Positions 33,379 to 34,711 of a stretch of DNA of 64,000 nt are shown here, one piece after another. A program made the translations under genes and the position numbers. This DNA is from Ignisphaera sp. Its GTDB lineage: Archaea > Thermoproteota > Thermoprotei_A > Sulfolobales > Ignisphaeraceae. Below the pieces are notes generated by a model that ran no database searches, was not told the origin of the DNA, and was given only the letters and a program-made list of their open reading frames with translations. Each line of letters opens with the position of its first letter. Position 1 is the first letter of the stretch. The stretch is from NCBI GenBank assembly GCA_038821645.1, contig JAWBDT010000009.1, positions 1 through 64,000 of the forward strand, given 5' to 3'.

Positions 33379-34008
33379 TTACATCTCACCTTTCTCTAAC
33401 TTCTCTATCGCTGATCCAAGACCTATATACATCAGTATCCATGCTATAAACGGTATACCTATTATAAATAATATGCCTGCCACCATTATCGAAGTAACAC
33501 TAAATGTATCGTTTAGTTTAAATGATAGAATTATTAGACCTATATAGCCAACTAAAAGCATTATACCTCCTATAACCACTAATGCTAAACCCCCCAAAAT
33601 GATTCCAAGGTTTAACGCGAATGCCCCAGCAAGAATGATTATAATGGCTATAAGCATTAATACTGCTCCTCCACCATATCCTATCTTTAAGAGTTTTGAA
33701 GATGTAGAGAACTTCTCATCCCATTCCGCTAATTTTGATGTACCTGGAATCACAAATCCAAAGAGACCAACCAAATTCAGTATGAAACCAACTATAGCTA
33801 CTCCTAGTATCGTAGCTAAGCCCATAAACGCTCCTATAGCACCTCCACCAAAACCTGTTGCCAGTATTGTAGGTATTGCCGTTATAAGAGCACCAACTAT
33901 TAATAGTGTTGCTACTATGAATATTATGGCTCCTGTCCTAAGTTTCCTGAGCCCCTCTATAGCTATGGACTTACTTTCTGTACTTACAGAAGATTGTGGT
34001 GACCCCAT
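33379..34008 (-). CDS. DUF973-like membrane protein
   Basis: EGLRKLRTG, Gly-rich TMs, AGILFII, WILMYIGLG. Confidence 0.72.
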   Translation of the reverse strand: MGSPQSSVSTESKSIAIEGLRKLRTGAIIFIVATLLIVGALITAIPTILATGFGGGAIGAFMGLATILGVAIVGFILNLVGLFGFVIPGTSKLAEWDEKFSTSSKLLKIGYGGGAVLMLIAIIIILAGAFALNLGIILGGLALVVIGGIMLLVGYIGLIILSFKLNDTFSVTSIMVAGILFIIGIPFIAWILMYIGLGSAIEKLEKGEM

Positions 34009-34176
34009 CTTCTGTACCTCACTCTCTATCTAGCTATGGTTTCTCTTATATAAACTTTACTTTCTATAGGCTGGTTAAGTATTATAGATATTGTGTTATA
34101 GAGCTTTGTATCAATGTGGAAACTTATACTTGACAGAATTGCATAAGTGTGTGACACATAGGTATTGTGTATGTGG

Positions 34177-34246
34177 GGGTGTGCGACCCCGTCGGCTTCT
34201 CTCTTCATTCTCTCCGTATCTACGGAGCGTCTGAGAGCCTTCCCAC
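34177..34246 (-). ncRNA. Putative non-canonical H/ACA pseudouridylation guide RNA with K-turn (predicted target 23S U2511, E. coli numbering)
   Basis: GC-rich island; K-turn CUCU-CAGA...AUGAAGA-GAG with apical hairpin CUCCGU/ACGGAG; arms GUGGGAA and GCCGAC complementary to recalled 23S GUCGGC-UC-UUCCCAC; ACA 14 nt after the start of the 3' arm; TATA box upstream. Confidence 0.72.
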
Positions 34247-34267
34247 TTTATCTTTTAAGGTTTGGTG

Positions 34268-34285
34268 TTTAAAAATATTTTCTTT
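34268..34285 (-). promoter_or_regulatory. BRE/TATA promoter of the guide RNA
   Basis: Minus strand AAAGAAAATA-TTTTTAAA ending 21 nt before the first G of the RNA. Confidence 0.6.
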
Positions 34286-34354
34286 TTACCGGTTCATGCA
34301 TATTTATTAGCTCTAGATTCATCTATCTTTCAATGGGATCTATTGTTGTTGTTT

Positions 34355-34711
34355 ATGTCTTCAGGTAAGCTTGTTAAGAACTATACAGTATTGGAGAAGT
34401 ATTTTGATTTGTTAGAGAAGATGGGGGTAGATAAATCTCTGTATTTACCGAGTTCAAGTGATATGGATTTTGTTGTGAGGCTTGTATCCTCTGGTAGAAA
34501 AAAGCTTTCAGATGTTTTAGAAGAGCTTATTGCTAGAATTGTGGCTAGAGTGCATAGAGAAGCTGCTAAAGAGGCTATTAGAGAGGCTTTAGGTAGCGAT
34601 ATTGATGAAGAGATTGCTGTAGATATTGTGGCTAGAGATATTGCTGGATGGATTCTAGAAATAGCTGAGAACATGGGTCTAATAAAGATAGATAGTAGCA
34701 TGATACGCTAA
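34355..34711 (+). CDS. Conserved hypothetical crenarchaeal protein
   Basis: 118-aa ORF with coding-like codon usage from ATG 34355; the ORF-track extension to 34262 covers the divergent promoter. Confidence 0.7.
   Translation: MSSGKLVKNYTVLEKYFDLLEKMGVDKSLYLPSSSDMDFVVRLVSSGRKKLSDVLEELIARIVARVHREAAKEAIREALGSDIDEEIAVDIVARDIAGWILEIAENMGLIKIDSSMIR

Follow-up and report, generated by a model that had tools for sequence, protein, structure and literature searches.

The minus strand of the 64,000-nt window analyzed here (positions 1 to 64,000 of contig JAWBDT010000009.1, assembly GCA_038821645.1, Ignisphaera sp.) carries, from position 34246 to about 34177, a GC-rich gene of ~70 nt (GC = 0.56 across 34160-34239, with flanks of ~0.27-0.40). 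We consider it likely that this gene encodes an atypical H/ACA-type guide RNA without a lower stem, which has its own promoter and is predicted to direct pseudouridine formation at position 2680 of the organism's own 23S rRNA. Several features were observed directly: the anatomy of the element, the covariation of its hairpin, the conservation of its ruler distances and of its 3' guide, a unique bipartite match to the rRNA, and four protein genes of the pseudouridylation machinery.

Transcription, protein binding and modification are predicted from these features. We propose that L7Ae would bind the kink-turn (K-turn) of the hairpin and that Cbf5-Nop10-Gar1 would also be bound, with a ten-layer stack and the 14 nt to the ACA box setting the catalytic site atop an open "pocket". 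The 3' guide GCCGAC(G) would pair with CGUCGGC of 23S rRNA and the 5' arm GUGGGAA with UUCCCAU, leaving a U-C unpaired between the two duplexes. The U at own position 2680, in helix 90 of the peptidyl-transferase center, would then be isomerized to pseudouridine.

Structure of the RNA

The minus-strand string given in an earlier prediction made from the sequence of this window (the original prediction) matches the DNA letter for letter, starting at G34246 and placing ACA at 34182-34180. The features are collected in Table 1.

Table 1. Features of the predicted guide RNA gene, in window coordinates (NC, non-canonical; C, canonical; BRE, transcription factor B recognition element; MFE, minimum free energy)
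Feature	Positions	Strand	Remark
BRE-like purine-rich run	34286-34276	minus	directly precedes TATA-like box
Promoter, TATA-like TTTTTAAA	34275-34268	minus	read from sequence
5' guide arm GUGGGAA, predicted RNA 5' end	34240..34246	minus	predicted to pair with 23S UUCCCAU, own 2682-2688, one G.U
K-turn hairpin	34199..34239	minus	fold and covariation
GG opposite AA 34197..34198	34239-34238	minus	
NC stem CUCUC/GAGAG	34237-34233 with 34203-34199	minus	five pairs, points to open ends
Non-bulged strand A-G-A	34232-34230	minus	
Distal C stem	34229-34222 with 34217-34210	minus	
Hairpin loop	34221-34218	minus	
Bulge AAU (3 nt)	34209-34207	minus	
G-A-A	34206-34204	minus	
AA opposite GG 34239-34238	34197..34198	minus	stack layers 9 and 10, K-turn to pocket
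3' guide GCCGAC	34191..34196	minus	predicted to pair with 23S CGUCGGC directly 5' of target U
GGGGUCG-C module, place of lower-stem 3' strand	34183..34190	minus	conserved
ACA box	34180..34182	minus	14 nt past first guide base
C-run able to close hairpin with GGGG 34190-34187; likely RNA 3' end	34175..34179	minus	MFE

The K-turn that had been claimed is present with all of its parts, namely D-like and C-like motifs, a 3-nt bulge and stems on both sides, and both stems covary among homologues. The C stem consists of C29-G10 and six Watson-Crick pairs, with one G.A mismatch. After the bulge come the tandem G.A/A.G pairs, then A.A, and then the NC stem, which faces the pocket, the orientation found in H/ACA K-turns and in C'/D' motifs. 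The folding energy beats 200 of 200 shuffles (z = -3.4).

The distances from the K-turn to the pocket and from the guide to the box act as the ruler of such RNAs. The productive archaeal H/ACA fold is described as combining a GA stem of 10 with a distance of 14-15 nt to the ANA box (PMC4652768), and a helix H2 of 5-6 bp with 14-15 nt from ANA to the U, the 3' guide mattering more than the 5' one, is given by Muller et al. (2008, PMC2377435). In the host RNA, the 3' strand has ten layers if the G.A, A.G and third non-Watson-Crick pairs are counted. The K-turn position 3b lies 7 nt from the guide in 26 of 29 full-length homologues, the host included, and 8 nt in the other three, while the last A before the guide is kept in all 29. 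The predicted spacing of 14 nt between G34196, the first guide base, and ACA holds in the host; it is 14 nt in 27/29 homologues, and 15 and 16 nt in one each.

The 5' strand of the lower stem is missing, as proposed: no complement of GGGGUCG was found upstream, and the promoter abuts the 5' arm. The lower stem (H1, ~9 bp) is formed neither in the host nor in any homologue inspected, and a stem with upstream sequence was rejected after no complement was found in the host or the homologues. The 3' hairpin GGGGU/ACCCC suggested in its place is seen in the MFE fold of the host RNA but is not conserved, the matching C-run after the box being absent from 5 of the 29 copies (L021, L022, L026, L031 and L039). 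A mini-hairpin, CGAC-GGG-GUCG, was also tried as a local mimic of the lower stem and discarded, as it is broken in tails with GCCGAA or GCCGAG and in GCCGGC...GUCA/GUCU tails.

Predicted target site in the 23S rRNA

The host 23S rRNA gene lies on contig C13, and its target stretch reads GTCGGCTCTTCCCAT. The 15-mer target given in the original prediction is present once in the host 23S rRNA, except that its final base is U and not C (...CCCAU versus ...CCCAC). As a result, the 5'-terminal G of the RNA forms a G.U rather than a G-C pair, and the pairing is kept. Aligned to the host 23S rRNA, the arms give the expected bipartite pairing of 7 + 7 bp around an unpaired U-C in helix 90, the U being own position 2680. 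The seventh pair on the 3' side is made by G34190, the base next after the 3' guide. Its rRNA partner, the base before GUCGGC (L001:1500 in the host 23S), reads C throughout the host genus as well as in G067, and U in families f9 and f10; since G pairs with this C, the host has 7 pairs rather than 6.

The pairing scan counted contiguous Watson-Crick or wobble pairs. For each U, the 3' guide was matched upstream; the 5' arm was matched from U+1 to U+3 where the rRNAs were scanned, and from U+2 in the scan of the whole genome. Across the host 16S and 23S rRNAs, own 23S position 2680 is the only 7 + 7 site. No other 23S site reaches a pairing sum of 8; the best other rRNA site is in 16S, with a sum of 8, and nothing else in either rRNA attains 9 or more. 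Genome-wide (1,016,910 U, both strands), one other site has a sum of at least 14. This site, on contig C8 with a sum of 15, is wobble-rich and was set aside.

The identity of the target was judged by spacing. We take the U of the GGAUAACAGGGU motif to be the anchor site, yeast 2826 / E. coli 2457, and we assume that the relevant yeast pseudouridines are 2865 and 2880; the E. coli number U2511 is that of the original prediction. The target U lies 54 nt after the anchor U, and U is also found at +36 and +39 in the host 23S rRNA. By this spacing, the site corresponds to yeast Psi2880 and to the U2511 that had been named. The Pyrococcus abyssi pseudouridines 2549, 2585, 2588 and 2603 show the same spacings (PMC2377435), and 2549, 2588 and 2603 are stated there to be conserved in eukaryotic large rRNA. 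For the anchor itself, U2597 of Sulfolobus islandicus is equated with yeast 2826 and E. coli 2457 (PMC11077068). Own position 2680 would accordingly match, by spacing, P. abyssi Psi2603, Thermococcus kodakarensis Psi2607 and yeast Psi2880. A pseudouridine has been described at this site in archaea (PMC2377435; PMC6138745).

Conservation of the RNA family

With a 91-nt query, BLAST detected the RNA in 13 of 41 relatives; among genus-mates, 11 of 16 gave a match. An 11-sequence alignment served to build a covariance model that, run on the order with E up to 0.01, placed the RNA in 37 of 151 genomes. By family, the matches were 15/18 in f1, 10/18 in f3, 1/1 in f4, 2/14 in f6, 1/8 in f7, 1/18 in f8, 2/6 in f9, 2/18 in f10 and 2/18 in f13. 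Some weak matches span the hairpin alone and may therefore be other K-turn RNAs. A second model run covered 121 genomes from the class and 141 from the phylum; it added three full-length copies in f9 and two in f10, and detected no family member outside the order. The RNA also occurs in at least six public records, as seen in a sequence-pattern scan of public contigs. Among the matches listed in that scan, most are chance matches from GC-rich bacteria; two from Poseidoniales/Thermoplasmatota were rejected because they lie inside an ABC-ATPase reading frame, and L089 and L123 have no match to the model. The RNA family is conserved, unannotated and, among the genomes searched, confined to the order.

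The hairpin is supported by covariation. In the 11-sequence alignment, 99.2% of the cells are paired, compared with 44-64% in slid controls, and compensatory changes occur at 5 of 12 pairs. In 29 full-length copies, a set that omits G004 because it is identical to the host, 97.4% of the cells are paired, against 47-55% in slid controls, and 11 of 12 pairs are compensatory; this larger alignment was fitted to the model and thus leans towards the structure. Covariation, a check that the original prediction called for, is found in the hairpin.

Other elements are conserved as well. The box reads ACA in 12 copies, AUA in four, AAA in one, UCA in six, GCA in four and CCA in two, i.e., ANA in 17/29 and NCA in 12/29. 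The guide begins with GCCG in 26/29. Its position 5 is A or G; either base can pair with the one 23S U, as A-U or G.U, and the rRNA does not vary. GGGGU is present in 29/29 copies and GGGGUC in 28/29. In the five other genomes with a readable 23S stretch (G015, G139, G032, G052 and G067), it shows few or no differences from that of the host; it is not assembled in G017, G021, G050 and G026.

The 5' arm behaves differently from the 3' guide. It had been taken as the start of the RNA, and in the host it does match the target, but it is not a fixed feature of the family. Within the genus, GUGGGAA is found in the host and G004 only and is missing in 14 of 16 RNA-bearing genomes. In those 14, the TATA-like box ends 21-26 nt before GGCUC, so that the RNA must begin about there, without an arm. 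Outside the genus, arms are seen as GGGUGGGAA in G017, AUGGGAA in G021, G027, G086 and G108, CAGGAUGGA in G052, G062 and G042 (9 pairs with one bulged C) and UGGGAUGGGA in G032 (10 continuous pairs). When the 12 nt preceding the NC stem were compared with all 3076 windows of the host 23S rRNA, the window just after the target ranked first for G017, G027, G052 and G062, 9th for the host, 27th for G108, 65th for G021 and 74th for G086. The target window is thus in the top 75 of 3076 for 8 of the 29 arms. This distribution suggests that the arm is ancestral or recurrent. It is clearly dispensable, an accessory lost by most genus-mates, and the sequence comparison points to the 3' guide as the constant, dominant determinant. 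The dispensability of the arm agrees with the published dominance of the 3' guide (PMC2377435) and with the action of the S. islandicus guide sR148 through its 3' guide alone (PMC11077068).

Complementarity of the tail to helix 89

The conserved GGGGUC(G) fills eight positions of the canonical lower-stem 3' strand, and its partner was not found in the window. GGGGUCG is complementary to CGACCCC at own 23S positions 2649-2655, a helix-89 stretch that lies 18 nt upstream of the site matched by the 3' guide; the host rRNAs contain UCGACCCC a single time. GGGGUC in the host family can be read in three ways: it may serve a second target, it may find its lower-stem partner in trans in the substrate, or it may be a relic or a protein contact. 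As the rRNA is invariant, covariation cannot decide among them.

One guide could read two stretches of the peptidyl-transferase center with the same 3' tail, GCCGAC at helix 90 and GGGGUCG at helix 89, the rRNA serving as a trans lower stem or as a second target. We regard this as a tentative and rather unlikely extension of the helix-90 assignment. In the trans-stem variant, the helix-89 strand of the rRNA would stack under the 3'-guide helix, beside the ACA box that the PUA domain of Cbf5 would bind, which fits the published stacking of the 3'-guide helix on H1 beside ACA-bound Cbf5 (PMC2377435). In the second-target variant, the helix-89 strand is followed by three U, one of which the tail would serve; by spacing, the third corresponds to P. 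abyssi Psi2585. The two sites are exactly the two orphan pseudouridines of Thermococcales, and such a guide might therefore have been missed there.

A sister RNA, family B, is found in f10 at L051 (G139) and L052 (G116). Its tail, GCCGCGGGGUU, is one base shorter than that of the host family (family A) and matches GACCCCGCGG(U) of helix 89 without a bulge. Its arms, GUAGCA and GUGCAA, match UGCUAC just past the three U. From these matches, family B probably guides modification of one of the three U, the third being, by spacing, the P. abyssi orphan Psi2585. Among the second model matches of f3, f8, f9, f10 and f2, no family-B paralogue was present in a genome carrying family A; these matches were dismissed as other K-turn RNAs with other tails, or as coding sequence.

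Alternative interpretations

Several points weigh against the assignment to helix 90. In 21 of the 29 copies (eight from f3, 12 arm-less genus-mates and G050), the arm is not distinctive for the site, and for the f3 arms (GGUGGAA and variants) 536-1821 windows of the host 23S rRNA are better. The guides GCCAGC, in two genomes, and ACCAGC, in one, mismatch the site. Since the rRNA stretch is invariant, covariation between guide and target cannot be shown. The inclusion of sheared pairs in the ten-layer rule is our reading of the published convention; counted in this way, the GA-stem and H2 rules of the two sources are reconciled (PMC4652768, PMC2377435). S. islandicus, a member of the same broad group, has no pseudouridine at this 23S site (PMC11077068). 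In Thermococcales, the site is made by Cbf5-Gar1 free of a guide in vitro and free of Nop10 in vivo (Fujikane et al. 2018, PMC6138745), and a guide is therefore not needed everywhere. Finally, the best 23S duplex of the genus tail is the one on helix 89, with one bulged A (-23.1 to -24.8 kcal/mol, the next being -21.8), and in a cofold with a 61-nt piece of rRNA the tail goes to helix 89 and the arm to helix 90. A cofold with a 33-nt piece gives the canonical bipartite pairing.

In one alternative, the main or an additional target of the family lies in helix 89, where the tail GCCG-N-CGGGGUCG would sit on CGACCCCGCGG(U) of 23S with one bulged base and the modified U would be among own 2660-2662, helix 90 being a second, weaker site. 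Helix 89 is the best 23S duplex not only for the genus but also for the tails of L053 and family B (-22.9 to -24.8 kcal/mol), and the longer cofold sends the tail there. A target at this position would explain the invariant GGGGU(C). Family B matches it without a bulge, its arms fitting the bases just 3' (GUAGCA with UGCUAC), and a single 3' guide serving two nearby sites has a precedent in sR148 of S. islandicus (PMC11077068). However, family A does not match without a bulge or internal loop (1-4 nt), and none of its arms match the helix-89 flank, compared with 8/29 at the helix-90 flank. The helix-89 duplex is outside the four best for the f3 and L043 tails, many GC-rich rRNA sites lie within 1-3 kcal/mol, and the choice among the three U would vary with the register. 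We find this alternative quite unlikely, and favor the helix-90 target.

It is improbable, in our view, that the element is a non-modifying K-turn RNA which, bound by L7Ae, clamps the 3' strand of helix 89 and the 5' strand of helix 90 of nascent 23S rRNA as a folding chaperone. Both complementarities are partly conserved, and the arm and the tail do go to helix 90 and helix 89, respectively, in the cofold with the longer rRNA piece. A clamp, however, gives no reason for the exact H/ACA ruler of ten layers and 14 nt to ANA/NCA, and the box together with the unpaired U-N between the duplexes points to catalysis by Cbf5. To our knowledge, there is no archaeal precedent for such an rRNA clamp. 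Another kind of K-turn element, either a methylation guide of the box C/D type or a neighboring gene's cis-acting leader or trailer, is suggested by the internal motifs resembling C' (AUGAAGA) and D' (CAGA) but can hardly be correct, as the terminal C (RUGAUGA) and D (CUGA) boxes are missing from the RNA, which has internal C'/D'-like motifs only, Rfam gives no match, the gene has its own promoter, and the adjacent DUF973 gene is there only in the host and G004.

Genomic locus and protein genes

As claimed in the original prediction, a promoter precedes the RNA, and its TATA-like box ends 21 nt before G34246. In the homologues, a TATA-like box, read by eye, ends 19-28 nt before the first structured base. 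We infer from these sequence features that the gene is a transcription unit with its own promoter. The DUF973 gene, its neighbor in the host and G004, carries a separate TATA-like box. Several genus-mates have an ABC-ATPase gene close by, and in other genomes the immediate neighbors differ. With such differing neighbors and its own promoter, the RNA appears to be an independent gene and not a leader. Upstream of it, at 34381-34701 on the minus strand, lies an open reading frame of 106 aa that has no Pfam match, is of low complexity, overlaps a 149-aa plus-strand reading frame and may not be a gene.

That standard annotation would miss the RNA was borne out. Rfam covariance models at the gathering score, including the curated H/ACA models, gave no match in the whole window, and none was obtained in 33900-34500 at E up to 10. 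ARAGORN found no tRNA gene, and a tRNA or tRNA-like gene was ruled out; a weak model match on contig C5 is the antisense of a tRNA T-arm. A literature search, which reached the "H/ACA" phrasing only indirectly, turned up no paper describing a guide of this kind in Ignisphaera or Desulfurococcales.

The host encodes Cbf5 (432.6 bits), Gar1, Nop10 and two L7Ae-family proteins. The cbf5 match (L081, G000:C11:37987-38976) contains one in-frame TGA. Crenarchaeal cbf5 genes are said to have a spliced intron, and the TGA probably reflects an intron of the same kind. In S. islandicus, Cbf5 is described as "two exon-encoded fragments" (PMC11077068).

Strain variants were read from hot-spring metagenome DNA contigs over 34111-34420. 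The 5' arm is unchanged in the sole variant contig that spans it. Inside the RNA, changes are seen at 34183 (the base before ACA), 34200 (A-U to G.U in the NC stem) and 34211 (a mismatch position of the C stem). A 2-nt insertion lies just past the box, and the spacer between the TATA-like box and the RNA has 2-nt and 1-nt deletions. There are three substitutions in 65 nt of the RNA versus four in 66 nt of flank, which is compatible with constraint, the numbers being too small to test.

Other K-turn RNAs were noted during the searches. A second host K-turn hairpin, L070 (G000:C6:38469-38506, minus strand), has a TATA-like box upstream and the tail GGUCCCCGGCCUUC, and may be another H/ACA-like guide. 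A conserved K-turn hairpin RNA whose tail contains CCCCUGG occurs at L073, L074 and L077 in f3 and at L079 in f10; this is apparently a distinct family of guides within the order. In G067, the match between the 23S rRNA gene on contig C3 (L047/L048, f3) and that of the host stops at the equivalent of L001:1530 and takes up again ~650 nt later. This insertion, ~23 nt past the predicted target, is probably an rRNA intron.

Comparison with known guide RNAs

The RNA shares with the canonical Pyrococcus H/ACA RNAs (Pab/Pf) a K-turn above the pocket, ten layers, a box at 14-15 nt, a bipartite antisense element with an unpaired U-N, and a dominant 3' guide. The K-turn's orientation, its distance from the pocket, the box distance and the bipartite antisense are thus those of canonical guides. 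In contrast to them, helix H1 is missing, and the H/ACA covariance models of Rfam do not match. The mark of an atypical guide, a single K-turn hairpin without a lower stem and with a guide on one or both flanks, is present.

In Thermococcales, the same uridine by spacing is the orphan Psi2603/Psi2607, for which no guide was found and whose rRNA is thought to mimic a T-arm (PMC2377435; PMC6138745). The same enzyme would be expected to act in both cases, and here a dedicated guide appears to read the site. The predicted target is a conserved pseudouridine site of the peptidyl-transferase region, which in Thermococcales is the main example of guide-independent rRNA modification by Cbf5. If the assignment is correct, one uridine can be served by either route, guided or guide-free, and one could test directly if Thermococcales have a guide that escaped notice. 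Sister species with and without the 5' arm also offer a natural experiment on the sufficiency of the 3' guide in vivo.

Among the Pyrobaculum H/ACA-like sRNAs sR203-sR210, sR207 is termed "intermediate" and targets L2596/L2597 (Toffano-Nioche et al. 2015, PMC4652768). For 59% of the motifs, a box of the ANA or degenerate NCA type is reported at the canonical distance (PMC4652768); the notation used is "10/14". The host RNA resembles these RNAs in the truncated lower stem, the ten-layer GA stem and the box, which in Pyrobaculum is often ANA/NCA at the canonical distance; it differs in lineage. The nearest match outside the order is a K-turn RNA in f28, from another class of the phylum (L205, L206 and L209), with the tail AGCCGGUAGGGCCGACCGCAU and a possible lower stem of 3-4 bp. 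The 23S rRNA of f28 (L212-L214) reads GUCGUCU at the helix-90 site, so that this RNA does not match the site; it may correspond to sR207. The host RNA keeps ACA without a lower stem; its architecture, which the original prediction placed between canonical and stem-less Pyrobaculum guides, is less novel than was thought, such RNAs and boxes being already known.

The closest parallel is found in the atypical H/ACA RNAs sR109, sR136, sR148 and sR563 of S. islandicus (Li, Wu and Ye 2024, PMC11077068), where lower-stem-less H/ACA RNAs were validated genetically and biochemically. Like the host RNA, they have a single K-turn hairpin, lack the lower stem, carry the guide on the flanks of the hairpin and target rRNA. 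With its 3' guide alone, sR148 forms a 6-bp duplex and serves two nearby target sites (PMC11077068), and this mode resembles that of the arm-less genus-mates and the 6-7 bp 3' duplex seen here. The predicted target differs from those of the S. islandicus RNAs, that species having no pseudouridine at this 23S site. The RNAs, compared by description, also differ in the box: the S. islandicus RNAs are described as lacking ACA, whereas the host RNA keeps ACA at 14 nt together with the invariant GGGGUC. For the atypical class as a whole, the motif is said to be lacking in one part of the literature (PMC11077068) and mostly kept as ANA/NCA in another (PMC4652768); in the present family, ACA is retained by the host and NCA stands in 12 of 29 relatives.

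The present family extends atypical H/ACA guides beyond Pyrobaculum and Sulfolobus, a distribution left open in the 2024 study (PMC11077068), and shows that Rfam and standard annotation miss such genes. It is not a new kind of system but a new, unannotated and well-conserved member of the lower-stem-less H/ACA-like guides.

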